A DNA stretch of 48,644 nt from Escherichia coli. Its GTDB lineage: Bacteria > Pseudomonadota > Gammaproteobacteria > Enterobacterales > Enterobacteriaceae. Both the position numbers and the translations under genes were made by a program. The notes beneath the pieces are model-generated. The model did not search any database, was not told the origin of the DNA, and saw only the letters and a program-made list of their open reading frames with translations. The DNA is taken from NCBI RefSeq assembly GCF_016903815.1, contig NZ_CP069971.1; one strand, 5' to 3'. Below are positions 1 through 48,285 of the stretch, piece after piece; position 1 is the stretch's first letter; each line of letters opens with the position of its first letter.

Positions 1-738
1 ATCTCCGGCCAGTAACTCTTTGGCTTCGCTTTCTGTAAACCTGAGATCGATTAATGCAGAAAGCTGCTGTAATTGGTCTTTTTTGTATTTGCGAATGGCC
101 TTATTTGCGGCCTTCATTTTGACGTGTGACTTCATGCAGCCTTGCAGCTTACGAAGCAACTTAAATAGCGCATCAGGATCATCAGACGAAATTCCATTAC
201 GACCAACACCTGCGGCTTTGCTCTCGTAGTGTGATGCTTTACTTTCGCATTCAACAAACGCTTTTCTTAATAACGCATCAGCTTTAGACAAACGGCGGCG
301 ATGGCCTTTCGCGCTATAATGGTCAACTAAAATCGGCTGGCCTAACGGGATCACATCCAACAGGTCATGCGCTCGCTTATGCGCTACCGCACCTTCTTTT
401 CTGGCTTTTTCTGCACGAGCAATATATCGGGCAAGACGCGCGTTCTGGCGTTCCTGATAGGTGTTTACGTAATCATCTCCGCGCTGCTGCTGTTCAAGCC
501 ATGCTTTGCGCAGATCTTCTGTTACGTCCACCAGCTCCGCAGGGATACAACCAGTTTGGGCTTCATAAGAGTAACCATCCTCATAGATACGCCCATCATC
601 TTCAACAAAGAAAAAGGTTTCGTGCTCATCGCTTTTGACCATACGACCATTAACATGGCGTAATAGGTAGCCAGTATCAGTGCTTAACAAGCTGTTAGGG
701 TTGTTGATCCAGTCAGAAATAATTACTTGTTTATTCAT
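1..738 (-). CDS. hypothetical protein, 5' portion only within window (possibly DUF3560-like); ORF runs off the window start
   Basis: Minus-strand ATG at 736-738 preceded by GGAGA; reverse translation is open to position 1 (MNKQVIISDWINNPNSLLSTDTGYLLRHVNG...). Not in the ORF track because it has no stop in the window. Family assignment is from memory only. Confidence 0.5.
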   Translation of the reverse strand, partial: MNKQVIISDWINNPNSLLSTDTGYLLRHVNGRMVKSDEHETFFFVEDDGRIYEDGYSYEAQTGCIPAELVDVTEDLRKAWLEQQQRGDDYVNTYQERQNARLARYIARAEKARKEGAVAHKRAHDLLDVIPLGQPILVDHYSAKGHRRRLSKADALLRKAFVECESKASHYESKAAGVGRNGISSDDPDALFKLLRKLQGCMKSHVKMKAANKAIRKYKKDQLQQLSALIDLRFTESEAKELLAGD

Positions 739-855
739 CAGATTTCTCCGGTTTAACCAGGGCGGGTATCGCTCGGTTTCGGGTATAACCTTAGGAAATT
801 TTTTCCCACCTGTAAAGCACTTTTTATATAAATCTATAATTATATATTTATAGAT
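739..855 (-). promoter_or_regulatory. conserved promoter-leader cassette, copy 1 (sigma70-like -35 TTTACA on minus strand, AT-rich palindrome upstream, ~45 nt leader)
   Basis: About 103 bp identical to 10174-10285 and near-identical to 41876-41987; sits immediately upstream of a minus-strand start codon in all three copies. Confidence 0.6.
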
Positions 856-907
856 TTTCGATGTTCCCGATATCTACACACCATCAAAACAGCTCAAAAT
901 GACACTT

Positions 908-3258: not shown

Positions 3259-3274
3259 TTAACGAACTCCAGTT

Positions 3275-3400
3275 AAAACCACGATATGTGGTATTAAAAC
3301 CACATATCGTGAGTTTTTCAATGGGCAAAACAAAAAATAACCTTCTATTTGTGGTCCACCTCTCGTCTTACCATGTGAAAACCACTAAATGTGGTAATGT
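3275..3400. promoter_or_regulatory. divergent promoter/operator region with ACCAC-N5-GTGGT operator sites
   Basis: Cores at 3278-3292 (ACCACGATATGTGGT), 3299-3313 (ACCACATATCGTGAG, the mirror of the first) and 3381-3395 (ACCACTAAATGTGGT), plus a GTGGTCCAC element at 3351-3359. Confidence 0.6.
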
Positions 3401-3432: not shown

Positions 3433-4089
3433 ATGAAAAGCAACGACGAGAACATCAAGAAAGAAATAGGTCTGCGCATTCAGACTCTACGGAAACAATC
3501 CGGCATGACTGCCGGAGATCTCCAGCAAGTCACTGGAATAGGCTTAAGCACCTTGCAGAACTATGAGGCCGGATTAAGACAACCATCTATACCTGCCATC
3601 AAGAAAATCGCGCACGCCCTGAAAGCATCAGCGCCTTATATCGCGTGCTTAACAGATAACCCGTTCCCACCCCAGAATACTAACGCTCCTGTTATTCCTG
3701 GGCTTGTAGCTATAAAAAATGACATAGCATCGCACGCCGGAGAAAAGCCAGTGCTGGCGATAGAACAGGAGATTCTACGAAGCAAGAACATCAACCCATC
3801 GTCTCTGTCAGTTCTCCAGAGCAACGATGAGTTAATGTCACCAACAATATCCCCTGGCTCCCAAGTCCTGATTGATACAGACGATACAGAGATTCATGAG
3901 GGGATCTATGCCCTTGAAGACAGAAATGGCCTGGTTGTTTTGAGGCACTGTAGAGTCATACCGGGTGACAATGCTGTTATGCTGTCAACCGAAAGGGATG
4001 CTGAAATGAACACTAAGCATCTGAATAACGAGGAATTTAAGCGTTATAAAGTTCTGGGCCGCGTAGTTAGTGTTGTCAACTGGTTATGA
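3433..4089 (+). CDS. CI-like repressor (N-terminal HTH, C-terminal LexA/S24-type autopeptidase domain)
   Basis: 218 aa; HTH GLRIQTLRKQSGMTAGDLQQVTGIGLSTLQNYEAG; C-terminal ...VVLRHCRVIPGDNAVMLSTERD...YKVLGRVVSV resembles S24 peptidase. Confidence 0.75.
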   Translation: MKSNDENIKKEIGLRIQTLRKQSGMTAGDLQQVTGIGLSTLQNYEAGLRQPSIPAIKKIAHALKASAPYIACLTDNPFPPQNTNAPVIPGLVAIKNDIASHAGEKPVLAIEQEILRSKNINPSSLSVLQSNDELMSPTISPGSQVLIDTDDTEIHEGIYALEDRNGLVVLRHCRVIPGDNAVMLSTERDAEMNTKHLNNEEFKRYKVLGRVVSVVNWL

Positions 4090-4131
4090 TACACAGCACG
4101 GCGAAAGCCGTGCATTTCTACGCTCAAAAAA

Positions 4132-4146
4132 ACCACATTTTGTGGT
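4132..4146. promoter_or_regulatory. operator site ACCACATTTTGTGGT next to a TTGACA element
   Basis: Perfect 7-5-7 palindrome AAACCAC-ATTTT-GTGGTTT directly upstream of the 4182 ORF. Confidence 0.55.
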
Positions 4147-4181
4147 TTTGACAACATGTGAAAGTATAAAAGAGGCTACGC

Positions 4182-4556
4182 ATGGAATTACATACAGCCA
4201 ATAAAAACGAAACTCTGATCACTGCTGGAATCGAAATCCAAGCGTTGAACATAGCGATTGAGTGTATGTTATGCCAAATCATTGATAATGAGAAAGATAT
4301 CGACTGGATATCATCTACCCTTCATCTTGCTTACGAGCAAAAAGCCTGCCTCAAAACAGCCTTACAATACGATGTGCCTTCTGTATCAAAGCTGTGCCAG
4401 TCATTGATGGCATATAACAGAGCTATCATTTCTGTATGCCTCATGATTCTCGATGAGAATACCCCTCTTAGCGACCGCTCAGAAGCAGCTCTAACCCTCT
4501 CACGTAAACAGCGACAGCTAGCAAATCAACTGATATCAACGATAGCTGACCTCTGA
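4182..4556 (+). CDS. hypothetical protein (operator-controlled orphan gene)
   Basis: 124 aa ORF with an upstream GAGG RBS; flanked by an operator upstream and a hairpin terminator downstream. Confidence 0.45.
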   Translation: MELHTANKNETLITAGIEIQALNIAIECMLCQIIDNEKDIDWISSTLHLAYEQKACLKTALQYDVPSVSKLCQSLMAYNRAIISVCLMILDENTPLSDRSEAALTLSRKQRQLANQLISTIADL

Positions 4557-4560
4557 CTGC

Positions 4561-4585
4561 AAGCGGGCTAACGCCCGCTTATATG
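4561..4585 (+). terminator. intrinsic terminator hairpin
   Basis: AAGCGGGC-TAAC-GCCCGCTT followed by a T-rich stretch. Confidence 0.5.
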
Positions 4586-4589
4586 ATTA

Positions 4590-4683
4590 TAGATTTATAT
4601 AATTATATAAAACGCTTTTCATCCGCCAAAAAGTTGGTTATGCTTACCTCGTTCTATAAATATAGATTTATAGAATTATATAA
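4590..4683. repeat. two AT-rich composite sites (ATAGATTTATA + TATAATTATATAA) upstream of parA; candidate centromere/operator
   Basis: 4590-4610 ...tagatttatataattatataa and 4661-4683 tatagatttatagaattatataa. Confidence 0.5.
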
Positions 4684-4706
4684 CCAAACACATGGAGTCT
4701 CGACAA

Positions 4707-5360
4707 ATGACTATCTCTGTAGGTATTTTCAACGGAAAAGGCGGCGTAACCAAATCAACAATTGCCCGTGCTTTAGCAGTTGCTTATGCAAAGGCTGGCT
4801 GGAATGTATGCCTGATCGATATGGATGTGCTTAACGGAACGGTAACGCGTTGGGTACAACGCAGAATGGCCAACAATATCGAACCAGCAATCGCGGCGCA
4901 GCCGTGCGGCACACCATCACAAGTCCAGAAAATCATCGAATCAGAAGTATACGACCTGGTTATCGTCGATGGCGGTGCCTACGCATCTGAATCAGTACCG
5001 AAGCTCTCTGAATTTCTGGATATGGTTATTTTGCCAACCAGATTCTCTACCGATGACCTGGAAACCACCGTTAACACAGCTCACGGCATCGTTAAAAAGG
5101 GTGTACCAATCAAGAAAATTTGCATGGTGTTTTCCGGCGCGGCTGAAAACGAAGCTGACTATATTGAAGCCCAAGAGTACCTGGCTAATACGCCATACTT
5201 TGTTGTCGATAAGTACATTCCCCACAAGCCAGCTCTGAGCAAAGCTCAGGATAAGGGCTTAAGCCTTATTGAGTGCTCATACGTTGCGCCACGCAAAAAG
5301 GCAGACGATGTTATCCAGGGGATTATCAATCAGCTTGAGGCTCTGACTACTGCCGCGTAA
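4707..5360 (+). CDS. parA: ParA-family partition ATPase (deviant Walker A)
   Basis: MTISVGIFNGKGGVTKSTIA...CLIDMD; GGAG RBS about 10 nt upstream of the ATG at 4707 (the ORF track starts at an upstream in-frame ATG, 4692). Confidence 0.8.
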   Translation: MTISVGIFNGKGGVTKSTIARALAVAYAKAGWNVCLIDMDVLNGTVTRWVQRRMANNIEPAIAAQPCGTPSQVQKIIESEVYDLVIVDGGAYASESVPKLSEFLDMVILPTRFSTDDLETTVNTAHGIVKKGVPIKKICMVFSGAAENEADYIEAQEYLANTPYFVVDKYIPHKPALSKAQDKGLSLIECSYVAPRKKADDVIQGIINQLEALTTAA

Positions 5361-5391
5361 TATATAATTATAGTTTTATAGATTTATATAA
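5361..5391. repeat. AT-rich palindromic site between parA and the ParG-like gene
   Basis: tatataattatag ttt tatagatttatataa, the same motif family as at 4590-4683. Confidence 0.45.
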
Positions 5392-5403
5392 AAGGGGATA
5401 CAC

Positions 5404-5652
5404 ATGGCCGCACCATCAAAACCACCGAAAAAGAACAGCAAAGGCGTACCGCCATCAATCGAACAACCGCAGGTTTTCGACCCGACTGAAACGCCGACCA
5501 GAACCAAATCAGGTGGGGCACAAATGGCGTTTAACGTCGACCCTGAATTTAAACGCGAGTACAAAACGTTCGCCAGCTCAATGGATATGTCATTGAAAGA
5601 AGTGCTGACAAAATCTTTTGAGTTACTCAAGGCTCAATACAACCAGAAGTAA
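5404..5652 (+). CDS. small partition/centromere-binding protein, ParG-like (predicted ribbon-helix-helix)
   Basis: 82 aa; flexible basic N-terminus and C-terminal MAFNVDPEFKREYKTFASSMDMSLKEVL, RHH-like; immediately downstream of parA. Confidence 0.55.
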   Translation: MAAPSKPPKKNSKGVPPSIEQPQVFDPTETPTRTKSGGAQMAFNVDPEFKREYKTFASSMDMSLKEVLTKSFELLKAQYNQK

Positions 5653-5714
5653 GAGAAGGTGACGGCCTCCAGCGCCAACTGTTGGCCGTCGCGACACAAC
5701 AAGGGGAATTTGTT

Positions 5715-5864
5715 ATGTCCGAGCAACAATATACACGGTTACTGAAAACTCGTCTAACCGACCTCAAACGGCTGCAAGCTGGTTGCTTATTTGCCCTGCT
5801 ATCTACCAGGCCAGAATGGGTACGTGAAGCAGTTCTGAAAGGTTTAATGCGCTCCAGCGTTTAA
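5715..5864 (+). CDS. hypothetical small protein (49 aa from ATG 5715)
   Basis: AAGGGG RBS 8 nt upstream of ATG 5715; the track ORF at 5682 begins with TTG. Confidence 0.3.
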   Translation: MSEQQYTRLLKTRLTDLKRLQAGCLFALLSTRPEWVREAVLKGLMRSSV

Positions 5865-5874
5865 ATTCAACCAT

Positions 5875-5900
5875 AAAAAAGGCCCCCGAAGGGGCCTAAT
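5875..5900 (-). terminator. intrinsic terminator (GGCCCC-CGAA-GGGGCC, T-run on minus strand)
   Basis: Perfect GC hairpin flanked by an A6 run on the plus strand, i.e. T6 on the minus strand; lies between convergent genes. Confidence 0.65.
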
Positions 5901-5902
5901 CG

Positions 5903-6022
5903 CTACTTGCTGCTAATGTTTATCGTCACATTCAGAGCGTTATCAGTAATCTTCCAACCCTCCCCATGTGGCGTAAACAAAGCTCCAGTAACAACGATAA
6001 AAATACACATACAGTATTTTTT
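5903..6022 (-). CDS. small hydrophobic peptide (about 40 aa), function unknown
   Basis: MKKYCMCIFIVVTGALFTPHGEGWKITDNALNVTINISSK with an AGGG RBS, ending at the terminator hairpin. Confidence 0.3.
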   Translation of the reverse strand, partial: KKYCMCIFIVVTGALFTPHGEGWKITDNALNVTINISSK

Positions 6023-6423
6023 CATTGTATGGCCCTTACAGGCCGTTTCACGGCATCCCCACCGACGAAAACAACGCGAGAGCAAGCACGGCTGCTTGTG
6101 CTTGCATGTACGGCAACGGAGAATCCTCCCCTAAAGTCGGTGCCCGGGTGCGAATCGGCGGGAAGGTCCACAGGTATTTTACGATTATTTTAAGATTAGT
6201 TATAGGAAAGAAATTAAACGAAAAAACTCGTTTATTTTCACAAAATCAGTAACCTACCCACAATCTGTGAGTTTGCAGGCACAACAAGAACCACAATTTT
6301 ATGAAGCATAATAGTGGACTATTATTACCTTTTGGGTAAAATTAACTTGCTGCTTGTGCTTGCGTGGTTGTTTATACAACAACGTAATGCTGAAAGGACC
6401 GCGAATCCGATCAGCACGAAAGA

Positions 6424-6449
6424 ACCGTCCTCAATAGGGCGGTTTTTTT
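6424..6449 (+). terminator. intrinsic terminator/attenuator in the antirepressor leader
   Basis: ACCGTCCT-CAAT-AGGGCGGT followed by T7. Confidence 0.6.
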
Positions 6450-6468
6450 GTTTCTGCCTACCAATAAA

Positions 6469-6483
6469 CCCACACTATGTGGT
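6469..6483. promoter_or_regulatory. operator-like site CCCACACTATGTGGT (ACCAC-N5-GTGGT family)
   Basis: One mismatch to the operator consensus seen between the CI-like and Cro-like genes. Confidence 0.5.
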
Positions 6484-6593
6484 TGTCTCTGTTAAAATCC
6501 CGCCGTATTGACATAAATGCGCCATTGGTGGACACTTTCCTAGCCGTAGCAAAATCTACGGTCGGGATTGGAACCCCGTAGACACAATGGCGC

Positions 6594-6616
6594 ATACCGC
6601 GTTAGCGGTTTTTTTA
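6594..6616 (+). terminator. second terminator-like hairpin in the antirepressor leader
   Basis: ACCGC-GTTA-GCGGT followed by T7. Confidence 0.45.
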
Positions 6617-6781
6617 TGCGTAAAGCACTGCTACACCCAAATTATGGTGGGGCGTGCGGGGGAGTCGTAAGACTCGCCGGTTCGTCATTGTGTCCGGTAG
6701 TTCCAACCCTGCACGTCTCACCACCCAATGATTGGAACCTGACGGTGGTGAGTATCCTTAACCTTTAAGGGAATCATCACA

Positions 6782-6973
6782 ATGACAAACCTACCCCATG
6801 ACTATTACGTCAACCTCGTAAAGATCCTTCTCAAGAAAGCCTCATACGCCGATAAATTCCGCCTGGCTGAAATAATCGAGCGCGAAGCTATGCGCATCGC
6901 CAGCAACGATAACGCTGTTTCTGTCGCAAAAATCTCCCTCGTAACCAAAGTAGTTATGGGAGGTGCAAAATGA
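6782..6973 (+). CDS. small protein translationally coupled to the antirepressor gene
   Basis: 63 aa; its stop overlaps the ATG of the next gene (ATGA overlap at 6970). Confidence 0.45.
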   Translation: MTNLPHDYYVNLVKILLKKASYADKFRLAEIIEREAMRIASNDNAVSVAKISLVTKVVMGGAK

Positions 6974-8151
6974 AAACGCTTCCGACCGTTAACACCCTAC
7001 AGCCTATCCTGCATAACCAGATCCCCGTTATCACTACTGAACTACTGGCGCAATTGTATGGAACCGAGCGCCAACGTCTGACGAACAATTTCAATAGAAA
7101 CAAGGAACGTTTTATAGAAGGTAAACACTTTTTTAGGATAGAAGGTAAAGAGTTACGAGAGTTGAAGAACAAAAACTCTTTAAGAGTTCCTGTGAGAGTA
7201 GTTAACGAACCATCTTTAAGAGGGTTACAAATTCCCCCGAAAGTTCGCTCCCTCATCCTCTGGACAGAACGCGGGGCTGCACGTCACGCCAAAATGCTTG
7301 AAACTAACCAAGCGTGGGATGTGTTCGAACGGCTGGAAGACTGCTATTTCAGCCAGAACGCGCAAACGGCCGCGACCGTAACCGTCTCGCCAAGCAATGC
7401 TCGTGAGGTTGTTGATACGCTCAACGCCAAACCAATGTATTACGTTAAGGTGTGCAATAACGAGCCACTCACAACCTCAGCCGATGTTGCCCAGGCATTC
7501 AGCACCACAAACAATTCCATCGTTATGGCCATCGATGCGTTACGCATTCCTCGCACAGCTGCGGCGCGTCATTTCTTTAAAGAGCAACGACCGTTGGAAG
7601 GAAGCGACCGCGAAATAACAATCTATCGCATGACAAAAGACGGATTTACCTTGCTCATGGAAAGTATCGACGGTCCAAGCGTGAAGGATATCAAGCTGGC
7701 CTACATTGAAGCTTTTAACGCTATCAGCAGCGTGTTAAAGGCAGAATACGAGCGAATACTATACAACCGACTGTATCAGGAAACAAAGATTATCCGAACG
7801 GCAACAGAACATCATCGGCTATTAACGGAACCAAACTACCGCAAGACACTAATCAAAGAGTTTGACAAAGCGACGGAGAAAACTAAAGCGGCACTAAATC
7901 TACCAACAATGACTAAGGATGATGTGATATCAGCCTTACTTCTTGATCTACTCAGAAACGCCAGAGCACTTATAAGCTTTGACGAAAACCTGAATCCTCA
8001 GCTCAAGCTACTACCACCGACAGGCAAAGTAGTCGACCAGGCTGATCACAACAGCATACTCAGCGTTCTGGATGCAAACCTGCCAGCCAGGACACTACAG
8101 GAACTGATAAAAATATCTGCGGATAAACTGGCCGCAGGTGCAAAACCATAA
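6970..8151 (+). CDS. antirepressor-like protein (ORF6N/KilA-type N-terminal domain)
   Basis: 393 aa; N-terminal ...NNFNRNKERFIEGKHFFRIEGKELRELK...LILWTERGAARHAKMLETNQAWDVFERLEDCYF matches the ORF6N-type antirepressor pattern as I recall it. Confidence 0.6.
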   Translation: MKTLPTVNTLQPILHNQIPVITTELLAQLYGTERQRLTNNFNRNKERFIEGKHFFRIEGKELRELKNKNSLRVPVRVVNEPSLRGLQIPPKVRSLILWTERGAARHAKMLETNQAWDVFERLEDCYFSQNAQTAATVTVSPSNAREVVDTLNAKPMYYVKVCNNEPLTTSADVAQAFSTTNNSIVMAIDALRIPRTAAARHFFKEQRPLEGSDREITIYRMTKDGFTLLMESIDGPSVKDIKLAYIEAFNAISSVLKAEYERILYNRLYQETKIIRTATEHHRLLTEPNYRKTLIKEFDKATEKTKAALNLPTMTKDDVISALLLDLLRNARALISFDENLNPQLKLLPPTGKVVDQADHNSILSVLDANLPARTLQELIKISADKLAAGAKP

Positions 8152-9792: not shown

Positions 9793-10173
9793 TTACTTAA
9801 CGAGGAATAAAAATGGTTTATTGTTCGGCGGTGTAATCGGGGCTGGCTCGCTTTTGCTCATGCGATCAGTGTACCAAGCCAACTCCTTGTCAAAGTAAGC
9901 CTGATTAAAATAGGCCATGAATGTAGTTTCAAATCCATAACGACCGCTAATACGCAGCATCTGATTGCCGTTCTCTGTTTCCAGATATACCTGGGCACGT
10001 TCCTGATTCTCCTTCAGCCAGGTTAAAGCCTCATCGCATGAGGACACACGATACTCATCATCGTAGCCGTCATCGATGCGGCTTGAGGAAGAACGGCAAA
10101 TCACGCCAACAGAACCAGCCAGGATAGTTTGAATTTTAAGGAAAGCGTTTTTGCGGATTTTAATCATGCTCAT
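9793..10173 (-). CDS. hypothetical protein (126 aa), first gene downstream of cassette copy 2
   Basis: ORF with a GGAGA RBS supplied by the conserved leader; no family recognised. Confidence 0.5.
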   Translation of the reverse strand: MSMIKIRKNAFLKIQTILAGSVGVICRSSSSRIDDGYDDEYRVSSCDEALTWLKENQERAQVYLETENGNQMLRISGRYGFETTFMAYFNQAYFDKELAWYTDRMSKSEPAPITPPNNKPFLFLVK

Positions 10174-10285
10174 CGGGTTATCTCCGGTTTAACCAGGGCG
10201 GGTATCGCTCGGTTTCGGGTATAACCTTAGGAAATTTTTTCCCACCTGTAAAGCACTTTTTATATAAATCTATAATTATATAAAT
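10174..10285 (-). promoter_or_regulatory. conserved promoter-leader cassette, copy 2
   Basis: Identical to copy 1 over about 103 bp. Confidence 0.6.
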
Positions 10286-10374
10286 AATAGTAACTGGTGT
10301 TTTTTTAGGCGAAGCATTAAACATTTTTGTTTAGCTTATTGGCAAGGTCTTGAAAAAGACATTTCAGCAATGCT

Positions 10375-13848: not shown

Positions 13849-14055
13849 ATCTGGTCATTTTCCAACCAGACACCCACAATCATAACCACGTTACGTGGTT
13901 TTAAGAGAACTCTACCACAACACTTTCGGTCATGCACGAAGTCTCTCACTGATCGAACGATAATCCACCAGTAAAAGGATCTAAATTGGATCTCGTTTTG
14001 CGAGCATCATACTACTGGCCTAACTCCAGTCAATGATGAACATAACAACACTCCT

Positions 14056-14583
14056 TTATTCTGGTTTGTCTGGCCATTCGGGGTTTGCTGTGTCCACGCG
14101 ACTGACAAGAACACTGTAACGTTCCCAGGCTTCCAGTCGGATACGCTCCTCATCTGTTGCCATGCTCAGCCTGACAGCGCGTTCCAGCGGCCGGATAACT
14201 GATTCAGCTTCGGAAAGTAACGTGGCCTTTTGTGATTCGGCCTGTTGTTGCTGTTCGCCTGCCGTATAAATCCGCTTAATCACGGCACCATCCTTAAACA
14301 TCCATTTACCTGAGTCATCAGCACGTCGGTTGGAGGTAATATCAGGAACCTCAACAACGCTAAAACCTTCAGGATTAAGCGTTGAAGCATCTCTGGTGAT
14401 AGCGACAATAATATTATTTTCATCGTAAACAATCTTTATTGTGTCTGGCTGAAAGTTCTTCACTTCCTCATACCAGTTTTTCCCGTCTTCAGTGTAAAGC
14501 CAGATGACTCCGTGCTTCTTTGTTAACTCATACTGTTCCAGTGTTTTAGCGTTACCCGCTTTTATGTTCTTTAAGTGCATCAT
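14056..14583 (-). CDS. tail fibre assembly protein (Tfa-like)
   Basis: C-terminal ...[27 protein letters not shown], the Tfa signature. Confidence 0.75.
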
Positions 14584-14584
14584 A

Positions 14585-15625
14585 TTAAACGCTCGCTACA
14601 TTATACCAGGTGCCATTTATATACTTTTGAACGGGTCTGTAATAAACGCCCGCTATATTATCGGCAGAGTTGGACCCTGTATCCTGAACATTAATACCAG
14701 ACAATACATGACCTGACGGGCACTGGAAATTCCATGTTTGCCAGTTATTCACTCCATAATATTGCTGTGAACCAAGTCGAACATCTTTCACATATCTGGA
14801 ATCAAAATTGCCATAGTTGCCGGGAATAACTTGCGAGCCGCAAAGCCAATTCCCGTTATTATCCATGTACGCCTGACCATCGGTGCCATTTTCTGTCCTT
14901 GAATTATTAATCATGTAGATGCCAAATTGCTTATTCCCCAGACCACCAATCATAAATTTGCGATCAGCATGGTCCTGACGTAACAATGCCTGAGCACCAT
15001 CGGTGGATACCACATTACGTCCGAAAATAACATTCTGGTCACGCATATTTATCCACATGCCGGTACTGCTATTAATTGCCAAACGATTTGCATATACCCA
15101 AGCATTGGTTCCTATATCACCAGTAACATTGAGTCCATTACCGATAGAAACAGCGCCATTGGCGTTATTAATGGCAAACGGCCTTAAACTACTCCATGTT
15201 CCCAGGCTGTCTCCCGAATTGGTCAACATGAAGTATGTGTTTGAACCATCGTTTCGGATAAAGAATCCATAGTTGCCATAGGCAATACGCAGACCATTCG
15301 CCGATTTGGAAATAATCTCGCCATCAGCCGTTAAACCGCCGGTAAGAGTTCCTCCCGTTATTGGCAATGCACCAATATTTTTCGGCGTCAGGTTAATATC
15401 TGATGTTCCATCAAACGAAACGTTATTAATTTTACGGGCTGTTTTCAGCTTTGTAGCCGTTGAGGCATTGCCGGACAGCTCACCAGAAATGCCACCAACA
15501 ACTGTTAGATCACCAGTTATTGTGCCGCCTGAAATTTCCAGTTTTTTAGCAACATTACTCTTAATAGAGTCGATTTCATTTTTCAGATTAGTTATATCTG
15601 CTGGTATTGTTGTCACTGTTGCCAT
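14585..15625 (-). CDS. tail fibre protein (second, shorter variant)
   Basis: Contains [28 protein letters not shown], a motif shared with the 792-aa fibre; followed by the Tfa gene. Confidence 0.7.
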
Positions 15626-15634
15626 ATTAATTCC

Positions 15635-15913
15635 TTACGCCCATTCCCGCAGCGGTTGTTCTAATTGAACTTCAAAACCATCAAACATTTGTTGTTTCAA
15701 ACTGTCGTTTAAAATACGAACATTAACAAAGAAGCCATCATTTTTAATCACTGTTGGTTCTTCGTTCTCGCCGTTTGGTATTTCGGTATATGTAATACCT
15801 ACAACATCAAGAAGGATGTTGTTTTGCAGTTCTTCATTATCGTGCCAGGATATACTCTCTAAAAAAGAGTCGTATTCTGCTCTGTCTCTGAATTTCAACG
15901 TAATATCTTTCAT
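15635..15913 (-). CDS. hypothetical protein, possibly a fibre chaperone
   Basis: 92 aa; start overlaps the fibre gene stop (TAATG). Confidence 0.35.
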   Translation of the reverse strand: MKDITLKFRDRAEYDSFLESISWHDNEELQNNILLDVVGITYTEIPNGENEEPTVIKNDGFFVNVRILNDSLKQQMFDGFEVQLEQPLREWA

Positions 15914-18291
15914 TAAATAACCTCAGCCATTTGTTGGTCTGTTAATGCTTTATGCCATATTCTGAAATTCCTGATATGACCAAATAAATGACGTAAGCCT
16001 GCTGTAGTCTGGCCTCCAATACGGATGGTTGCAGAGTTCTGAATATAGGACCACGTAGTCTTTGTTTCGCTGGATATGCGCCCGTTACTTACTGAGCACG
16101 TAGACTGATCTGATTTTACACGCATCCCCATAACCATTTTTTCAAGCGATGCGTTTTCGTTTACCCGTCTGTTAGCTCCTCCAATATTGCAATAAGGAAA
16201 TCCGTCGTAATCTGTTGAACGACCGAAGCCAAGAATAATAGCCGCTCCGGTTTGATGACCGCCTGTATCAAAAACACGCGGCGCTGCATTTGGCGTTTTA
16301 TACCAGTTCTTATGTACCTCACAAAGAACCGTAAAAGGAAGATTATAAAGATTATTATTAATTGGAACTGTAACTATATCGCTTGCGCGGGTAGCCGCCG
16401 TCGTTCCTGAGATAATAAAAGATGATGCACACGAACCATCCTCAACCTGAGGGGTGGCCAGATAAATATAGTCTCCAGATACGGTTGCTCCGCCCTGCTT
16501 AGGAGAATACTGTATCTGAGATCCTATTTTTAACTCATCATCAATTGCCAGGATTGTTGCCTCTGCAAAAATCCATCCGGTAGCTTCGTCCTTTCTGACT
16601 CTCGCTGTAATCCTTGAGGCCGCGCCACCTGTCATATTAATTTCAAGCGTTTGTGTATCAATATATGCATCACCAAGAAAAGTTGTTGCACTACCGTCAT
16701 ATTTATCAAAGCGGATACGCAACCTTACCTGTCGTTCTGTTTTAAAACGACATGAGGTTGTCACGTACTTGTTATCGCCTGAAACATCAACTGACTTTGT
16801 AGCAGCAATTGATGCCATATTAATGGCTGACGTTTGCCCAATCAGAGAATCGTTACAGACAAACTTTCCATAGGTAAAACCAAAACTATCAGTCCCGGTT
16901 TCGGGAACATCCATATTTGACGATCGCCCCCAACTGGCAGGGTTTTCCGAATTGAGCATGTAGTTTGTTCGTTGTCCCTCAATAAGCAGGCCATCACGTT
17001 CAAATCGTGGCTCGTCAATGGCAGCCTCTGTAAGCACACCAGATTTATTAATATAGGTTGCTTTCGATGCGCGTTTAAACTTAACAACCTTGTCGCCAGG
17101 CATTGTTATTTCGTCGTCGCCAATAACAATCTTTTTATATGATGGCGAAAAGCCCGTAATCATATCCAGCGAATCGTTAAACGGTATCCACACATCAGGT
17201 AGCGGTTGAATAATCTTCCGGGCATCCTCCAGTGACAATGCTTCGATATCCGAGGCTGTTAAAGTAATATCTGACGAACCGTCAAATGAAACGTTGTTAA
17301 TCTTCCGTGCGGTTTTTAATTTCGTTGCGGTGTCGGCGTTCCCCGTCAGTGCGCCGTTGAGTCCGCCGTTGAAAGTCTGGCGTTCACTCCATGTGTTAGC
17401 CGTGCTCAACAGGGGGATCTTTTCACCGCTTGTGCCGAGTTCTCTTAAACCAAGGTACTGGATAACAGCAAGGACACTTGTTTTAGCCAGAATATTACGG
17501 CCGACTGACGTTAAATCAGCCAGGGCTACTGTGTCTTTACCGGTAAAGTACGGCAATTTATTTGCAGCCGTCGCAAGTCCTGCCAGAGCGGTGAGCGTAT
17601 CATCTGCTGGTTGTTTTTGCTTTGCTAGGTCAAACACTTCTTTGACGGCTTTTGGCGTTGCTGCGCGCGTTTCAGAGGTACTGTTAGTGTCACTACTGAG
17701 TTGAACAATGCCTTTTGAGGTTAAAGTTGCATCAGGATGATTACGTGATTGCTCATGTTTTACAATGGCTTGCTTAAGTCGCTTTGCTGAAACAGCTAGG
17801 GAATCATCTGTACCTGCATCAATTTCTTGTTCATTAGCAAATCTTGCTACTCCAACAACAGTTTCGGTTGCGGGAGGGTTAATAAACTCAACATCACCAA
17901 ATGTAATGTTTTTAGTATCAAGATTTTTAATTGCTATATCACTTGATATTAAAGCAATTGTAGAAGATGCTTTATTTATTATTACTTGTTCTTGCGAGTA
18001 TACAGCAAACAATGTTCCTTTATTTGTATACAAACCTATTGTATGGACAACATACTCATCTTTACTATCATCCTTCGCAGTTACATGAATGGTATCAGGA
18101 GAAACGACTTTGCCTCCTATTGTGGTAAGTCGCTTTATTTCATCTGTTATTTTTGTTTGTGTGGTTGATGTGACATAATATCTACTACCTAAACCAACAG
18201 AAACGATCTCAACTTTATTTGTTCCAGTCTTGTTGGCATTAACCAGCTCCTGACGCCCGGCGTCAGTCATCGTAAATAATAATTTACTCAC
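15913..18291 (-). CDS. tail fibre protein (long)
   Basis: 792 aa; [28 protein letters not shown] motif; directly downstream of the baseplate genes. Confidence 0.75.
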   Translation of the reverse strand: MSKLLFTMTDAGRQELVNANKTGTNKVEIVSVGLGSRYYVTSTTQTKITDEIKRLTTIGGKVVSPDTIHVTAKDDSKDEYVVHTIGLYTNKGTLFAVYSQEQVIINKASSTIALISSDIAIKNLDTKNITFGDVEFINPPATETVVGVARFANEQEIDAGTDDSLAVSAKRLKQAIVKHEQSRNHPDATLTSKGIVQLSSDTNSTSETRAATPKAVKEVFDLAKQKQPADDTLTALAGLATAANKLPYFTGKDTVALADLTSVGRNILAKTSVLAVIQYLGLRELGTSGEKIPLLSTANTWSERQTFNGGLNGALTGNADTATKLKTARKINNVSFDGSSDITLTASDIEALSLEDARKIIQPLPDVWIPFNDSLDMITGFSPSYKKIVIGDDEITMPGDKVVKFKRASKATYINKSGVLTEAAIDEPRFERDGLLIEGQRTNYMLNSENPASWGRSSNMDVPETGTDSFGFTYGKFVCNDSLIGQTSAINMASIAATKSVDVSGDNKYVTTSCRFKTERQVRLRIRFDKYDGSATTFLGDAYIDTQTLEINMTGGAASRITARVRKDEATGWIFAEATILAIDDELKIGSQIQYSPKQGGATVSGDYIYLATPQVEDGSCASSFIISGTTAATRASDIVTVPINNNLYNLPFTVLCEVHKNWYKTPNAAPRVFDTGGHQTGAAIILGFGRSTDYDGFPYCNIGGANRRVNENASLEKMVMGMRVKSDQSTCSVSNGRISSETKTTWSYIQNSATIRIGGQTTAGLRHLFGHIRNFRIWHKALTDQQMAEVI

Positions 18292-35569: not shown

Positions 35570-36121
35570 TTATTCTTCCTGCTTAATAAATCGGGATTCC
35601 TGGAGCGCCTGAAGCGCAAAATTAATCTCGTCTTCAATAATGCGTTCGATCTCCCTGGCTGTTTTGCCTTCACAACGGGGAGCTGCTCTTGGAGCAATAC
35701 TAAATAAGCGGCTACGCAATTCATTAGCTGCCAGAAATGCATCATCCCTGACCGCATCTTTAGCGATGAGAGAGCCTTCCTTTTCTTCAAATTCAAGGCG
35801 TTTCAGCTTTGCCTGATAAATTTTTTCTGCGGTCTTAGCCTTGTTGAATTGCACCGCAACACCGGAAGTACCACCAGCTAATCCGGCATCATCAGCGGGT
35901 AACTCTGGTTGTTCCGAAGATATCCCATGCCCTCTTTTTCCATTTTCAGCAGATACCTCACGACCAACCTGTCGGCTCGCTTCATAAGCCGCACTGGCTT
36001 TATCAAAATCCAGCTTGCCGCTTTTCAGCACTGGAATGCGACCGGAACGACAGAGCTTCGTAACCATTGCCGGAGAAATACCTTTCCGGCGGGCAAACTC
36101 TGACTTACTGACGATGGCCAT
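35570..36121 (-). CDS. terminase small subunit (Nu1-like)
   Basis: MAIVSKSEFARRKGISPAMVTKLCRSGRIPVL... HTH N-terminus; ATG overlaps the upstream gene stop (TAATG). Confidence 0.7.
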   Translation of the reverse strand: MAIVSKSEFARRKGISPAMVTKLCRSGRIPVLKSGKLDFDKASAAYEASRQVGREVSAENGKRGHGISSEQPELPADDAGLAGGTSGVAVQFNKAKTAEKIYQAKLKRLEFEEKEGSLIAKDAVRDDAFLAANELRSRLFSIAPRAAPRCEGKTAREIERIIEDEINFALQALQESRFIKQEE

Positions 36122-36711
36122 TACTTGCAACCATTGGCAAGATACTGAACAAATCCCTCATGCGTTTCATGCGCGTCGTGGTACTGACGATAAACATCCA
36201 GCAACAATGCAATTTCCATATCCGTCGCGGGAATACGTTCTTTATCAATAGCCAGGTACTTAATTTGAACAACAGGGGAAGAATTATCGTCTTCTTCCTG
36301 CGGCTGTTCATCGCTTAACATTTCGTCAAGCTCTGCATCATTAAACCCAAGCAGATCAATATCAAAATCATCATCCATTAACTCTTTGACTTCTTCGGCC
36401 AGAAGCTGCATATCCCAGCCAGCATTTAAGGCCAGCTTGTTATCTGCAATCCTGTACGCCTTCTTCTGTTTTTCAGAAAGGTTACTCAACCGAATCGCCG
36501 GAACTTTATCCATTTCCAGAATTTCGGCTGCTGCAAGCCGCCCATGCCCCGCAATCAGTTCATTCTTTTCATCGATCAGCACAGGATTAGTGAAACCGAA
36601 CTCACGGATACTGTTCACCAACTGTTCAACTTGCTCATCTGAATGAGTCCGTGAATTTTTGGCATATCTGAGCAGCTTACCGACTGGTAAATATTCGATT
36701 TTTAGAGCCAT
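36121..36711 (-). CDS. ParB-like N-terminal domain (ParB/Srx fold) protein
   Basis: 196 aa; ...LIDEKNELIAGHGRLAAAEIL...; paralog of 39378-40001. Confidence 0.7.
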   Translation of the reverse strand: MALKIEYLPVGKLLRYAKNSRTHSDEQVEQLVNSIREFGFTNPVLIDEKNELIAGHGRLAAAEILEMDKVPAIRLSNLSEKQKKAYRIADNKLALNAGWDMQLLAEEVKELMDDDFDIDLLGFNDAELDEMLSDEQPQEEDDNSSPVVQIKYLAIDKERIPATDMEIALLLDVYRQYHDAHETHEGFVQYLANGCK

Positions 36712-37268
36712 TTTTTAACCGCCATAACACAACAGGTTAAAGAAAACTGTTTAACTTATTGATACTAAAAGAGAAAAATGACGATCTTTTTACTCATAAA
36801 AAATCACACAAACCAGCATAATCATCTGATTTTATTAAGTTTTTATAAGTAAAAAGGATCTTGCGATGGTTTTTTGGTTAAAAGATTGGATGTATTTGCA
36901 TGATTTATAACGATTTTTATCAGAACAACATCACATTGGTTAAAGATCTGCGCGTATCTTGATGATCTAAAAGAAAATTTTCTACTTTCTTTTTACCAGC
37001 ACAAGCACAGCAAAAAATCACGTTTTCCCAATATTTTTCAATGAGATGAGTAAATTTCTTTTACCGCAACTTTTAACCTAACTTTTTTCACGTTTAGCTA
37101 GCCGAACATCGGGGTTCGAATGACCCGCATCCAACGCTTTTGTCCAGAAGGACCCAATTCTGCCGGACGATGAAACGATGCTCGTGCACCCCCACAGACA
37201 GCCAGCGAGCGACGCTACAGAACACAGTGAATACACTCTGCATAACAACACCATCAACCACACGATGA
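36712..37268. other. AT-rich non-coding region with clustered GATC sites; candidate cos/packaging and late-promoter region
   Basis: About 550 bp without a credible ORF, upstream of the terminase operon. Confidence 0.35.
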
Positions 37269-37988
37269 TTAACGAGAGAAGGTCTTGGAAAGAATGTCAT
37301 CAATAGCCTTTGTGACTTCATCAGCAAACGCATCCTCACCAGCACGCAGCGCCACGCCATGCCAATCAAGACGCTGCGAATAGTTAGGTTGCTGGATAAA
37401 CGTAAGGATCAACGTAGGACGCCGCCCAACGCGCTGCCAGACGCCTGGTTGAAGCGGGTTACTTGTACCAGGTCGAACAACAAAAAACTCCGTAGGCTTG
37501 CCCTGACGGCGATTTTGATGCGCATCTCGCTGAACTCTTAGGCCAGATAAGACCTGCTGTAATTGCCCCCGCGAAATATTCCCGTATTTGTCCAGCTTTG
37601 CGCCGGGACCAGGAGCAATCTGCCAGCCGTTAGGCAAATATCCACCAGCCCTTAGCGCCCCTTCTGAGCGTTTGTACTGTCGTTGGCCACCTTCGATTTG
37701 CGGAGTCAACGTTACAGGGGCTGGCGTTCCTCCCCATTCACGAGCATACACAATGGCTGTAGGATCACTCTTCTTTGCGGCCAAAACGTAAGTAGAGTTC
37801 TGAATCCACGGCGTGGGCCTGTCAAATACCCGATTAATTTCATTCTTAATCGCAGCCTGAGAAGCCTTTGCCGTTCTGGTTGCCGCAAGCGCCATTGCGA
37901 ACGGCAATTCGCGTTCTTCAAGGCGCTGGAGTTGTCGTTGAATATCCTGAGAAGAAAAATCCATCTTTATCTCAATTCTGTCAGCCAC
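37269..37988 (-). CDS. hypothetical protein (239 aa)
   Basis: ORF downstream of the ParB-methyltransferase fusion gene. Confidence 0.5.
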   Translation of the reverse strand: MADRIEIKMDFSSQDIQRQLQRLEERELPFAMALAATRTAKASQAAIKNEINRVFDRPTPWIQNSTYVLAAKKSDPTAIVYAREWGGTPAPVTLTPQIEGGQRQYKRSEGALRAGGYLPNGWQIAPGPGAKLDKYGNISRGQLQQVLSGLRVQRDAHQNRRQGKPTEFFVVRPGTSNPLQPGVWQRVGRRPTLILTFIQQPNYSQRLDWHGVALRAGEDAFADEVTKAIDDILSKTFSR

Positions 37989-38004
37989 CAGCGCCTCCTA
38001 CACA

Positions 38005-39384: not shown

Positions 39385-40001
39385 ACCTCCCCAGCCAGCA
39401 ATGCGGATACAAATCCGATATAGCTGCCATTATCATCAACATAACGAGACACCGCGCAGTCAAAACGATCCGCTTCCTCATCCGTTGCCGGGATTTTATG
39501 ACCTCCAAATGACAGGTACTGAACTTTTACGCCTGATTTGGCCTCATCCTTCTCAAATGGGATATCCATACCCTCTGTGTCATCGTAGACTGCCGCACTC
39601 AATAAGTTATCCAGTTCGCGCTGAGTAAAACCAATTGAGTCCAGAGCAAAATCATCGGCCGCAAGATCTGCAAGCTCCGCGCTTAACAACTCTTCATCCC
39701 AACCAGCATTCAGCGGAATACGGTTGTCGGCCAGACGATATGCCTTCTTCTGATTCTCCGTTAGCCCAGCCAGAACAATGCAGGGAACATCATCCATCCC
39801 CAACTGAGTGGCCGCAGCAATTCGACCATGACCAGCAATTACAACGTTGTTCTCGTCTATCAGGATCGGATTAGTCCATCCGTACTCCTGTATGCTGGCA
39901 ACAATCTGATCTACCTGCTCCACGGAGTGTGTGCGAGCGTTCTTTTCATAACCAATCAACACAGAAAGTGGTAAAGAAACCACATTAAGATGTTTTGTCA
40001 T
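39378..40001 (-). CDS. ParB-like N-terminal domain protein (paralog)
   Basis: 207 aa; aligns by eye with 36121-36711 over most of its length. Confidence 0.7.
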   Translation of the reverse strand: MTKHLNVVSLPLSVLIGYEKNARTHSVEQVDQIVASIQEYGWTNPILIDENNVVIAGHGRIAAATQLGMDDVPCIVLAGLTENQKKAYRLADNRIPLNAGWDEELLSAELADLAADDFALDSIGFTQRELDNLLSAAVYDDTEGMDIPFEKDEAKSGVKVQYLSFGGHKIPATDEEADRFDCAVSRYVDDNGSYIGFVSALLAGEVC

Positions 40002-40844: not shown

Positions 40845-41057
40845 TCATGAAACTATCCATTCTTCAATGAATATCTCCAGTAATGTCAAGAGATACGCCG
40901 TCCCCAGCGCGGTTCCTACCGATATAGCTAAGACAAACCTCAAAGATAACGAGGTGTCTTTCGCTTTTCTCCAGACGTAAGCGCCAGCTAGAAATACCAA
41001 CAAATCTCTTATTGGAAGCGGAAACCAGAACAAATCACTCGGCATAAGCACGATCAT
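40845..41057 (-). CDS. small membrane protein
   Basis: 70 aa with two hydrophobic segments. Confidence 0.4.
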   Translation of the reverse strand: MIVLMPSDLFWFPLPIRDLLVFLAGAYVWRKAKDTSLSLRFVLAISVGTALGTAYLLTLLEIFIEEWIVS

Positions 41058-41334: not shown

Positions 41335-41408
41335 CCCATGTTCTCCTTTGTCTGGATGTAAAAAAGCCCCGGCAATTGCCGAGGCTCGTTGTTCGTTATC
41401 GTTACGGT

Positions 41409-41875: not shown

Positions 41876-41987
41876 CGGGTTATCTCCGGTTTAACCAGGG
41901 CGGGTATCGCTCGGTTTCGGGTATAATCATAGGAAATTTTTTCCCACCTGCAAAGCACTTTTTATATAAATATATAATTATATAATT
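41876..41987 (-). promoter_or_regulatory. conserved promoter-leader cassette, copy 3 (four substitutions relative to copies 1 and 2)
   Basis: tatctccggtttaaccagggcgggtatcgctcggtttcgggtataatcataggaaattttttcccacctgcaaagcactttttatataaatatataattatataa. Confidence 0.6.
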
Positions 41988-42575
41988 CTATGCCACTTGC
42001 CAGAGAGCATCATGCAACTGGATACCTCCATTGCACTGGTTGCCCCAGCCATGCCAACCATCAGGTAAATCACCGCGAGCAAACAGCTCAATACGAGGAA
42101 CATCACCTAACAGCCTTACCAGCTTGTCACGAACCACATCAGGCTTCCGAGAATGCTCCAGACGAGGCGATGTAAACGACTGAATGATCCCCGCATCAAG
42201 GCGGGTCGGCAATTTGCCTTTTACCGCAAACAAGCAATCTTCACTGTTTGCACGAGTCATATGCCCCATCCCCATCACCAGCTTATCTGGTTGTCGGCTA
42301 CCACATTTGTTCCATGTGAAGCCCTTCATGGTCATAAGCCTGAATCCCCATGCTTTCACCACCAGCAACGCTTCTTCTGGCTGAGTCGGAACCCACCACA
42401 TGGCCAACAAACACGATTCAGGATTAGCAAGCTGCCAGACAGGAATACGAGCAATATCCTCAGCTTTCATCGTTGGATACTTAAAACCAGCTCCACGATT
42501 CCCATCCTTACACTTATCTTTGTATTCCCAGGGGGGATCTGCATAAATCAGATTAAACAATGCAATTGCCTCCAT
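41988..42575 (-). CDS. MT-A70-family DNA N6-adenine methyltransferase
   Basis: 195 aa; LIYADPPWEY and ...SRKPDVVRDKL... motifs. Confidence 0.75.
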   Translation of the reverse strand: MEAIALFNLIYADPPWEYKDKCKDGNRGAGFKYPTMKAEDIARIPVWQLANPESCLLAMWWVPTQPEEALLVVKAWGFRLMTMKGFTWNKCGSRQPDKLVMGMGHMTRANSEDCLFAVKGKLPTRLDAGIIQSFTSPRLEHSRKPDVVRDKLVRLLGDVPRIELFARGDLPDGWHGWGNQCNGGIQLHDALWQVA

Positions 42576-42883
42576 GTTAGTTGTGCCTCCGGCGCTGATC
42601 TCCGGCAGTCATAACGCTGGCCAGCTCTACAGCAGACACAACGAAAAGGGCACTAACCAGACTGATTAATGCCCTTGCCTGTTGTGTGCCGGATATCGCC
42701 CGACAACGCTGTTTTGGTAACACGGCTACAGTTCCGTGCCGCTCCAGCTTTTACCCCTTTGCGGATAACAGGCCCTGCCTGTAACTTAGCCCCACGTTCG
42801 CCCGAAATGCGCACCAGGCACGCATAAAGATGAGCACGAAGGAAGTAACTCCACCGCGCTTATCTTTATGTGTGAGAGTGAAT

Positions 42884-42959
42884 TGGTGGCCCCTACCGGA
42901 TTTGAACCGATGACCGTGCGATTATGAGTCGCCTGCTCTAACCACTGAGCTAAGGGGCC
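42884..42959 (-). tRNA. tRNA with CAU anticodon (Met or Ile2-type)
   Basis: 76 nt; GGCCCCTTAGCTCAGTGGTTAGAGCAGGCGACTCATAATCGCACGGTCATCGGTTCAAATCCGGTAGGGGCCACCA; cloverleaf folds by eye, encoded CCA end. Confidence 0.8.
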
Positions 42960-43100
42960 ATATTTGATCTGTTTGTCTGGTGTGGCGCCGCGCACGAAAA
43001 TCCCAGCCAATAAATTCAGGATTTTTGGGCGCGGCGGCATATCAGACAAACATGGTTGATGCGTGCGCCCATGAGAAAAGCGCATAGAATGTTGTAACTA

Positions 43101-43130
43101 TATATTTATATAATTATAGAAATATATATT
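43101..43130. repeat. AT-rich palindromic site (tatataattatag) upstream of the tRNA
   Basis: Same motif family as at the par locus and the cassettes. Confidence 0.45.
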
Positions 43131-47961: not shown

Positions 47962-48260
47962 GCCACAGCCCCTCTCAACGGCTTAACTTTGGCTAATAAG
48001 GTGTTAAACAACATGGAGTTAGGGTTCATGCCAAATGGCAATTCCGGTTTAGCGGAGTAGTACAGGCAACCATTTATTTTCCTGGTTGTTATCTGTCCTT
48101 CGGCAACCATGCTTCTCAGTCTGCAACGCATAGAGTTCTGCGACACACCAATGTGCTCCGCGATTACGTCCACTTTTGAACATGGGTGATCGGTCAGGAA
48201 ATTAATCACATCTTGGGGGTTAATAATTTTGCGTTTCATTGTCGAGGCGTCCTTATACAT
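47958..48260 (-). CDS. putative winged-helix DNA-binding protein (PapI/FaeA-like)
   Basis: ...INFLTDHPCSKVDVIAEHIGVSQNSMRCRLRSMVAEGQITTRK... Confidence 0.4.
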   Translation of the reverse strand: MYKDASTMKRKIINPQDVINFLTDHPCSKVDVIAEHIGVSQNSMRCRLRSMVAEGQITTRKINGCLYYSAKPELPFGMNPNSMLFNTLLAKVKPLRGAVA

Positions 48261-48261
48261 T

Positions 48262-48285
48262 TATATAAATATATAATTCTATATA
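48262..48285. repeat. AT-rich palindromic site (tatataaatatataattctatata)
   Basis: Same motif family as the other seven copies. Confidence 0.45.

Follow-up and report, generated by a model that had tools for sequence, protein, structure and literature searches.

Phased 8-bp repeat arrays at the par locus and at dispersed promoters of an Escherichia coli phage-plasmid as putative sites of a ParG-like ribbon-helix-helix protein

The 48,644-bp stretch of Escherichia coli DNA analysed here (contig NZ_CP069971.1, the whole of which is referred to as the window) is a complete or nearly complete phage-plasmid of the myovirus type, and it carries eight AT-rich repeat arrays, three at its par locus and five dispersed at other promoters (Table 1). 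The par locus comprises parA and, directly 3' of it, the gene for a small protein with a predicted ribbon-helix-helix (RHH) fold, termed the ParG-like protein below. Array 1 of this locus lies directly 3' of the hairpin that ends the upstream gene and stops 4 bp before the putative -35 element of the par promoter, thereby spanning about -40 to -71; array 2 runs from about +2 of the putative transcription start to a point 22 bp short of the parA ATG; and array 3 fills the gap from the parA stop codon to the Shine-Dalgarno sequence AGGGG of the ParG-like gene. The initial annotation, in which two copies flanked the par locus, needs correction on this point, as two arrays precede parA and one separates it from the ParG-like gene. 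The par promoter stays below the threshold of the consensus scan and was read from the sequence and from positional homology, with TTTACA-17-TATGCT, TTTACA-17-TAATCT, and TTTACC-17-TAAGAT at the equivalent position of the relatives L009, Serratia, and L006, respectively. The layout of array, promoter, array, and parA is present in every relative examined, with allele-specific arrays at the position of array 1 in Serratia, L006, L007, L009, L010, and L011, and the position of array 3 is also occupied in L009 (by four copies of TTCTTTAA) and in L010.

Table 1. Coordinates of the repeat arrays, the par genes, and the predicted promoters in the window
Feature	Coordinates	Strand	Remarks
Dispersed array, 4 units	825..856	-	about 8 bp 5' of the class A -35, DUF3560 gene
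Par array 1	4580..4611	+	units TATATGAT TATAGATT TATATAAT TATATAAA
Putative par promoter	4616..4644	+	-35 TTTTCA, 17-bp spacer, -10 TATGCT; weak; between arrays 1 and 2
Par array 2	4653..4684	+	units TCTATAAA TATAGATT TATAGAAT TATATAAC
parA	4707..5360	+	217 amino acids; small Walker-type partition ATPase of type Ib style that lacks an N-terminal DNA-binding domain
Par array 3	5361..5392	+	units TATATAAT TATAGTTT TATAGATT TATATAAA
ParG-like protein gene	5404..5652	+	82 amino acids; putative centromere-binding protein, directly 3' of parA
Dispersed array, 3 good and 1 degenerate units	10261..10292	-	5' of a class A module
Dispersed array, 3 good and 1 degenerate units	41963..41994	-	5' of the class A promoter 41954..41926
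Dispersed array, 4 units	43099..43130	-	followed by GTTACA, a possible -35
Dispersed array, 4 units	48254..48285	-	GC-rich hairpin on one side, ribosome-binding site AAGGAcgCCTCGACAATG on the other
Class A promoter and leader modules, ~90 bp	736..824, 10171-10260, 41873-41962	-	three near-identical copies

All eight sites listed in the initial annotation hold the motif, and no further sites were found in the window. The core TATATAATTATATA, with up to two mismatches allowed, has 20 matches against 0.29 expected (largest value among the shuffles, 2), and these form eight clusters in which the matches are offset from one another by exactly 8 bp, which identifies the element as a tandem repeat of 8-bp units instead of one palindrome. 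Each array contains about four tandem units of the form T[A/C]TA[T/G]A followed by two W positions, the consensus being T (32/32), A (27; C in 5), T (31), A (31), T (23; G in 7), A (28), W, and W. T1, T3, and A4 are therefore nearly invariant, and the sole common variants, C2 and G5, are mutually reverse-complementary (TCTATA and TATAGA), which indicates that a near-palindromic hexamer is used in both orientations. The ATAGATTTATA unit, which had been described as a separate element combined with the palindrome in either orientation, does occur in both orientations, but it is the TATAGA variant of the same 8-bp unit. Similarly, the single self-complementary 14-bp site for one dimer gives way to an array of about four 8-bp subsites, the exact 14-mer being present at only two of the eight loci, and such an array would suit cooperative coating by several RHH dimers.

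The phasing of the units is strict. Autocorrelation reaches 0.73 at a lag of 8 and 0.68 at a lag of 16, compared with 0.14–0.32 at odd lags. Under strict matching, phased arrays of at least two units occur 8 times, the mean over 200 Markov shuffles being 0.02; the 11 isolated single units are at chance level (the shuffles hold about 14 units in all). Scanned with a looser position weight matrix, the window, its annotated twin pP136-7, and two close relatives from Salmonella each have exactly eight array loci of 3–5 units, whereas 30 shuffles have none. The motif is not found at comparable frequency in coding DNA, since none of the eight arrays in pP136-7 overlaps an annotated coding sequence in a record that is at least 83.5% coding (P about 6e-7). 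The eight arrays are distributed over six transcription units, and all of them lie inside a 17-kb regulatory and maintenance arc, with none in the 31-kb virion block.

The promoter-proximal position proposed in the initial annotation is supported. Three dispersed arrays (825, 10261, and 41963) each lie 8 bp 5' of a class A module, a predicted promoter with its leader that consists of a -35 element TTTACA, a 17-bp spacer with a dyad, a weak -10 element TAAGGT or TATGAT, a conserved hairpin in the 5' untranslated region, GGAG, and ATG. The first module precedes the DUF3560 gene, which starts at 738 on the minus strand and crosses the window start; the second drives a gene for 126 amino acids (10173..9793) followed by an RstR-like helix-turn-helix (HTH) gene; and the third contains the promoter TTTGCA-17-TATGAT (41954..41926), the only class A promoter confirmed by the consensus scan, which heads a long minus-strand block running into ParB-like, terminase, and virion genes. 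The array at 41963 overlaps the last codons of an MT-A70 methylase gene, and the array at 43099 lies about 140 bp 5' of tRNA-Met (42959..42884) and of this methylase gene. The array at 48254 is laid out like par array 2, and the translation-initiation region beside it, CCTCGACAATG, resembles that of parA; its ribosome-binding site belongs to a MarR-like gene of 93 amino acids, the first in an operon leading to holin and lysozyme. A homologous arrangement with the Serratia-type unit is present at 27671-27714 of L002.

The class A module was found by blastn in 61 plasmid records (57 Escherichia, 3 Salmonella, and 1 Klebsiella), at three places in nearly every listed record and at 184 places in all. 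Its spacer dyad of 5–7 bp, GGAAA-N3-TTTCC, reads TAGGAAA-N3-TTTCCTA in Salmonella and, judged from the sequence, looks like the operator of a second regulator. "Hairpin 1" of the leader, as drawn by RNAalifold, is better read as this DNA dyad within the promoter spacer than as RNA, while the hairpin in the 5' untranslated region has two covarying pairs (AU to GC in Serratia). The leader matches no Rfam family. The tRNA-Met gene (anticodon CAT, 42884-42959, minus strand) lies between the array at 43099 and the MT-A70 gene, and an open reading frame of 99 amino acids (42786-43085) that overlaps it is probably spurious.

The ParA protein matches Pfam CbiA (2e-12), MipZ, and ParA as well as the ParA-like PHROG (9e-39), and it matches NCBIfam ParA_partition under the cut-off of that model; its weak matches in the PDB to ParF (4dzz) mark it as distantly ParF-like. 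Its partner has been annotated only as hypothetical or of "unknown function" (PHROG 6024, unknown function). The AlphaFold2 model of the ParG-like protein has a mean predicted local distance difference test (pLDDT) score of 78.5, exceeding 90 across two helices, and comprises a tail, an extended segment, and the two helices; the N-terminal ~40 residues form a basic tail of low confidence, and the C-terminal part is predicted to adopt an RHH fold in which the beta-strand falls around Q40-V45 and the helices span 47-59 and 64-79. Nearly all neighbours returned by Foldseek are RHH proteins (StnY, PutA, CdbA, CopG, ParG, Arc, AmrZ, and ParD), and the top matches have TM values of 0.7–0.85 on the target and root-mean-square deviations of 1.1–2.3 Å.

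At the sequence level, a word-indexed search retrieved relatives of more than 79% identity only, and an exhaustive search of representatives reached further, with 299 representative homologues, most of about 75–85 amino acids. A profile built from 60 family sequences has ParG of TP228 (1p94) as its best PDB match (E=0.044), followed by SvtR and an antitoxin, both RHH proteins. Family members match the RHH_10, Antitox_RHH, 56B_RHH, and ParG models weakly, and one of the 60 reaches E=4.5e-3 against Pfam ParG (PF09274). By these comparisons, the 82-residue protein appears ParG-like in architecture and not a member of the ParG family by sequence. Paired with parA it looks like a type Ib partition system with ParG-like architecture, having a small ParA that lacks an N-terminal HTH, a small RHH protein encoded downstream, and iterated, allele-specific repeats alongside. 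In the otherwise variable tail, the basic motif K/R-x-x-x-K-G-x-P-P is kept at residues 8-17 (alignment A2), with K13, G14, and P17 invariant in the four closest sequences and P17 present in at least 90% of the 60; by analogy with the arginine finger of ParG, this motif is a candidate ParA-stimulating peptide. A weak tblastn match (50% over 36 amino acids) was also obtained in Erwinia phage LS-2018a, the first 50 kb of which hold no comparable arrays.

The strongest pointer to the protein that would bind the arrays comes from comparison across par cassettes. Nine cassettes with eight sequence-distinct ParG-like proteins were examined, and all nine have 8-bp-period arrays beside parA, built from six unit types. 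For example, the Salmonella protein, 91% identical to that of E. coli, goes with the same unit as in the E. coli window (TATAKAWW) in eight orthologous arrays, whereas the unit is TACATA / TATGTA in L007 (46% identity to the E. coli protein), of the T[A/C]TTTAAA type in Serratia (38%) and L006 (44%), and TTCTTTAA in L009 (39%). Similarly, with identities taken from alignment A2, the unit is TTAGCGAW in L008 (35%), TTCGTTAW in L010 (41%), and TTCGTTAA, of the TTCGTTAW type, in L011 (34%). The phage-plasmids of Serratia, L006, L009, and L011 each repeat their own unit at several further loci that are intergenic and close to promoters, among them orthologues of the class A promoters; at such orthologous promoters, TATATA-type arrays in E. 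coli and Salmonella correspond to TTTAAATA-type arrays in Serratia. A matrix of par-upstream 11-mers across genomes is block-diagonal, with dispersed matches only within a genome or among genomes having related ParG alleles. The residues of the beta-strand predicted to face the DNA vary along with the unit, with A/S-F-N accompanying TATATA, T-F-N accompanying TACATA, N-F-N accompanying TTTAAA, and N-F-K accompanying units that contain C/G. This co-variation of the unit with the cassette bears out the ParG-like protein as the best candidate binder, as proposed initially. In PLSDB, 62 records contain the ParG-like gene, including two from Serratia, and no natural recombinant pairing the class A module with a different par allele was found there.

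The eight arrays are thus likely to be the cognate DNA sites of the putative 82-residue RHH partition protein. This reading is built on the anatomy of the sites, their statistics, the predicted RHH fold, and the co-variation of unit and cassette, from which we infer binding, its stoichiometry, the sign of any regulation, and centromere activity of the arrays. Each subsite would consist of a near-palindromic hexamer, T[A/C]TA[T/G]A, with two A/T bases after it or, alternatively, of a TATA box and an AT-rich spacer of 4 bp. If the protein behaves as ParG and omega do, each 8-bp subsite would be contacted by the beta-ribbon of one RHH dimer, with cooperative coating of an array by four dimers. 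At the par locus, the arrays would serve both autoregulation and centromere function, with ParA recruited through the N-terminal tail of the ParG-like protein. The five other arrays would place the same nucleoprotein complex at other promoters, four of them in or close to the position of an UP element (about -40 to -75; these are the arrays at the three predicted class A promoters and the tRNA-Met array, for which the -35 is only a possible match) and one against a ribosome-binding site. The units addressed in this way would be the DUF3560 gene, the operon of the RstR-like regulator, tRNA-Met and the methylase, the operon running into the virion genes, and the lysis operon. A partition protein placed there would probably be a co-regulator for the whole plasmid and, in the plasmid-prophage state, most likely a repressor, which could act by blocking the UP-element position, by forming a roadblock, or by bridging between arrays. 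By analogy with omega, it could instead activate transcription at partial occupancy, and the dispersed arrays may also be additional centromeres.

Several observations weigh against this reading. The promoters were read from weak consensus matches, and one alone passed the scan threshold; at three, possibly four, of them the array lies 5' of the -35 element, so that repression by simple steric hindrance is not evident there. For the ParG-like protein, Pfam gives no match even at E<=10 and NCBIfam none, its family's best match to a PDB sequence is marginal, and the tiny size of the domain keeps the Foldseek E-values weak. In addition, the arrays of four units are shorter than parH (12 boxes) and OF (8 boxes) of TP228. 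On the other hand, a length of about four units counts in favour of the reading because four repeats are the minimum for the activation of ParA by omega.

An explanation in which the ParG-like protein binds all arrays, and the dispersed ones are extra centromeres only, with no meaningful transcriptional role and in intergenic positions merely because insertions are tolerated there, is unlikely. It draws on the match between arrays of about four units and the minimal functional parS of the omega system, on the four separate centromere sites used by N15, and on the confinement of all arrays to the 17-kb regulatory and maintenance arc outside the virion block. Against it, the placement is stereotyped, 4–8 bp 5' of the -35 element (at the three class A promoters and at par) or abutting a ribosome-binding site, and is kept at orthologous Serratia promoters although the unit sequence has been replaced.

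It is very improbable that the arrays are operators of another encoded regulator, whether the protein of 124 amino acids encoded 5' of parA, the MarR-like protein of 93 amino acids, or the RstR-like HTH protein, even though several small regulators of unassigned specificity are encoded beside the arrays and also diverge between genomes. The comparison of L010, which has a conjugative-type backbone, with the phage-plasmid L011 speaks most directly to this idea, because tblastx shows only the parA-parG cassette in common between them, their ParG-like proteins are 51% identical, and they have the same TTCGTTAA unit, which is dispersed at four further loci in L011; every other phage gene is thereby excluded as the determinant of specificity. 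Furthermore, the arrays do not differ between E. coli and Salmonella, although the 124-residue protein shares only 60% identity between the two, compared with 96% for ParA and 91% for ParG. An 8-bp period of short units is, in addition, characteristic of RHH proteins and not of HTH dimers. The CI-like S24 repressor encoded at 3433-4089 is rejected as the array binder since it has separate operators of its own, being the presumed owner of three to four copies of ACCAC-N5-GTGGT in the divergent cI-early intergenic region (3272-3396), the Salmonella relative having operators of similar form and Serratia another palindrome.

Finally, action of the arrays with no dedicated protein, as UP elements, overlapping -10 hexamers, bent DNA, or sites for H-NS, Fis, or IHF, is scarcely plausible. 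The arrays do consist almost entirely of A and T, occupy -40 to -75 of three to four promoters, and have TATAAT-like hexamers in both strands, but generic AT-richness leaves the strict 8-bp phasing and the near-invariant T1, T3, and A4 unexplained, as it does the genome-wide swap to other units including the G/C-containing TTAGCGAW and TTCGTTAW, which resemble neither -10 nor UP elements. The bidirectional -10 element suggested in the initial annotation lacks support for a similar reason, with relatives keeping the architecture while using units unlike a -10 element such as TTCTTTAA, TTCGTTAA, and TTAGCGAA.

Recognition of the arrays by the ParG-like protein would place the locus close to partition systems already described. 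In TP228, the ParG sites are tetramer boxes with regular 4-bp AT-rich spacers (8-bp period), each bound by one dimer, and the parH-OF arrays serve as both operator and centromere (PMC3130281). The present par locus resembles ParF/ParG of TP228 in its small ParA-type ATPase followed by a protein of ~80 amino acids with a flexible N-tail and a C-terminal RHH domain, and it resembles parH-OF in having 8-bp-period arrays of short boxes, direct or inverted, 5' of the operon. The ParG-type site architecture is present here in the peaks at lags 8 and 16 and in the use of both orientations (TCTATA and TATAGA). However, the box is TATA(K)A here and ACTC in TP228, there is no significant Pfam ParG match, the arrays have four units as opposed to 8 and 12, and one array lies between the two genes. 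Moreover, five arrays are dispersed at other promoters here, whereas in the account of TP228 consulted the ParG sites are confined to parH-OF 5' of parFG (PMC3130281).

A second parallel is omega/delta of pSM19035 (inc18), which likewise combines an RHH centromere binder with several promoter-overlapping repeat arrays per replicon. One omega dimer binds each heptad, at least four contiguous repeats are needed for ParA activation, and the arrays act simultaneously as parS sites and operators (PMC9499535); omega activates or represses according to occupancy, with activation at low occupancy (PMC4627068). The omega units are non-palindromic 7-bp heptads (WATCACW) in arrays of 7–10, in contrast to the 8-bp near-palindromic units in arrays of four found here, its host is a Firmicute, its replicon is a plasmid, and its regulon covers copy control, par, and toxin-antitoxin genes, not phage genes. 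With 8-bp units and no Pfam match, the ParG-like protein does not fall within the Omega_Repress family. The arrangement of several arrays at different operons is also found in Serratia, L006, L009, and L011.

Phage N15 offers a further likeness, being a linear phage-plasmid with separated partition sites, of which SopAB recognises four (IR1-4). These centromere sites are reportedly dispersed near phage regulatory regions, and the Sop system is said to influence late gene expression. N15 has a type Ia system with a large, spreading HTH ParB (SopB) and 16-bp inverted repeats, and no RHH protein or short tandem units; the present case departs from the N15 type in that the partner is an 82-residue RHH protein and the sites are tandem 8-bp units. 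In MetJ, an RHH dimer binds each 8-bp near-palindromic met box, and the boxes occur in tandem groups of 2–5, bound cooperatively, at several promoters of a regulon. Unlike the present system, MetJ is a chromosomal metabolic regulator with a co-repressor, with no ParA partner and no centromere role. The departures from TP228, omega, and N15 are thus a protein family outside Pfam, 8-bp near-palindromes in groups of four, and location at promoters proximal to late and lysis genes of a phage. In the literature library searched, a full-text query found no paper linking phage-plasmids, centromeres, and ribbon-helix-helix proteins.

The replicon that carries the arrays is widespread. Its 2.5-kb par region (window 4000-6500, used as the query) is 100% identical to E. 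coli plasmid pP136-7 and 95–99% identical to 56 further plasmid records, with at least 95% identity in 58 of the 61 matching records; these come from Escherichia (including ATCC 25922), Salmonella, and Klebsiella, and all 61 are typed as non-mobilizable. The region is also ~97% identical in three myoviruses infecting Yersinia pestis (vB_YpM_39, 41, and 44). Four gene groups stand out in the annotation, namely the P2-like head and tail genes, a repA of the IncFII type, the CI-like repressor, and an anti-repressor with a C4-type antisense RNA 5' of it; the last group is followed by the pair formed by parA and the small open reading frame. Assignment to the pSLy3 group was rejected, since pSLy3 belongs to the SSU5 supergroup.

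Other features of the window stand apart from the arrays. Rfam matches to isrK (isrK-like, 6543-6615, plus strand) and C4 antisense RNA (6640-6728, plus strand) are followed, directly 3' of the C4 RNA, by an anti-repressor of 393 amino acids with an ORF6N domain (6970-8151, plus strand; PLSDB annotation and PHROG anti-repressor families), a set that constitutes a P1/P7 immI-type immunity module within the P2-like myovirus backbone. Just 3' of the ParG-like gene, a full-length Rfam match to ryfA (142 bits, 5875-6171, minus strand) may, going by its sequence, represent a type I toxin-antitoxin or small RNA locus contributing to maintenance. Three consecutive proteins with ParB/Srx N-terminal domains (~36121-40001, minus strand; pP136-7 annotation) are encoded 5' of the terminase genes and are unrelated to the type Ib par system. 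In L001, a recombinase-family gene adjoins oppositely oriented tail-fibre-assembly genes (40950-43631, equivalent to window ~14000-16000), a layout suggestive of a Cin/Gin-type invertible switch of host range (tail fibre).

Phage-plasmids of ~48 kb such as this one, whose regulation appears undescribed, are frequent in E. coli of clinical and animal origin, the reference strain ATCC 25922 among them, and are found in Salmonella and Klebsiella as well. A wider reading, offered tentatively as a possibility that falls short of an even chance, is that the RHH partition protein is a second, genome-wide regulator of the phage programme in this widespread enterobacterial family, and that exchange of the par cassette re-targets the whole regulon. 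The arrays would then gate the promoters leading to the virion and lysis genes, to the unit of tRNA and methylase, and to two regulator operons, tying phage expression to the concentration of the partition protein and hence to copy number or entry into a naive cell, and after a cassette exchange every dispersed array would have been replaced to match. If the arrays are sites of the ParG-like protein, ~300 clusters of unannotated small proteins would gain a function as RHH centromere binders, and their natural series of pairs of protein allele and DNA unit (at least six unit types) would serve for reading the RHH recognition code. A type Ib partition protein would be wired into lytic and late phage promoters, extending the idea of omega as a global regulator from Firmicute plasmids to Gram-negative phage-plasmids and paralleling the reported link between Sop and late genes in N15, and this would have a bearing on incompatibility and superinfection between co-resident phage-plasmids.

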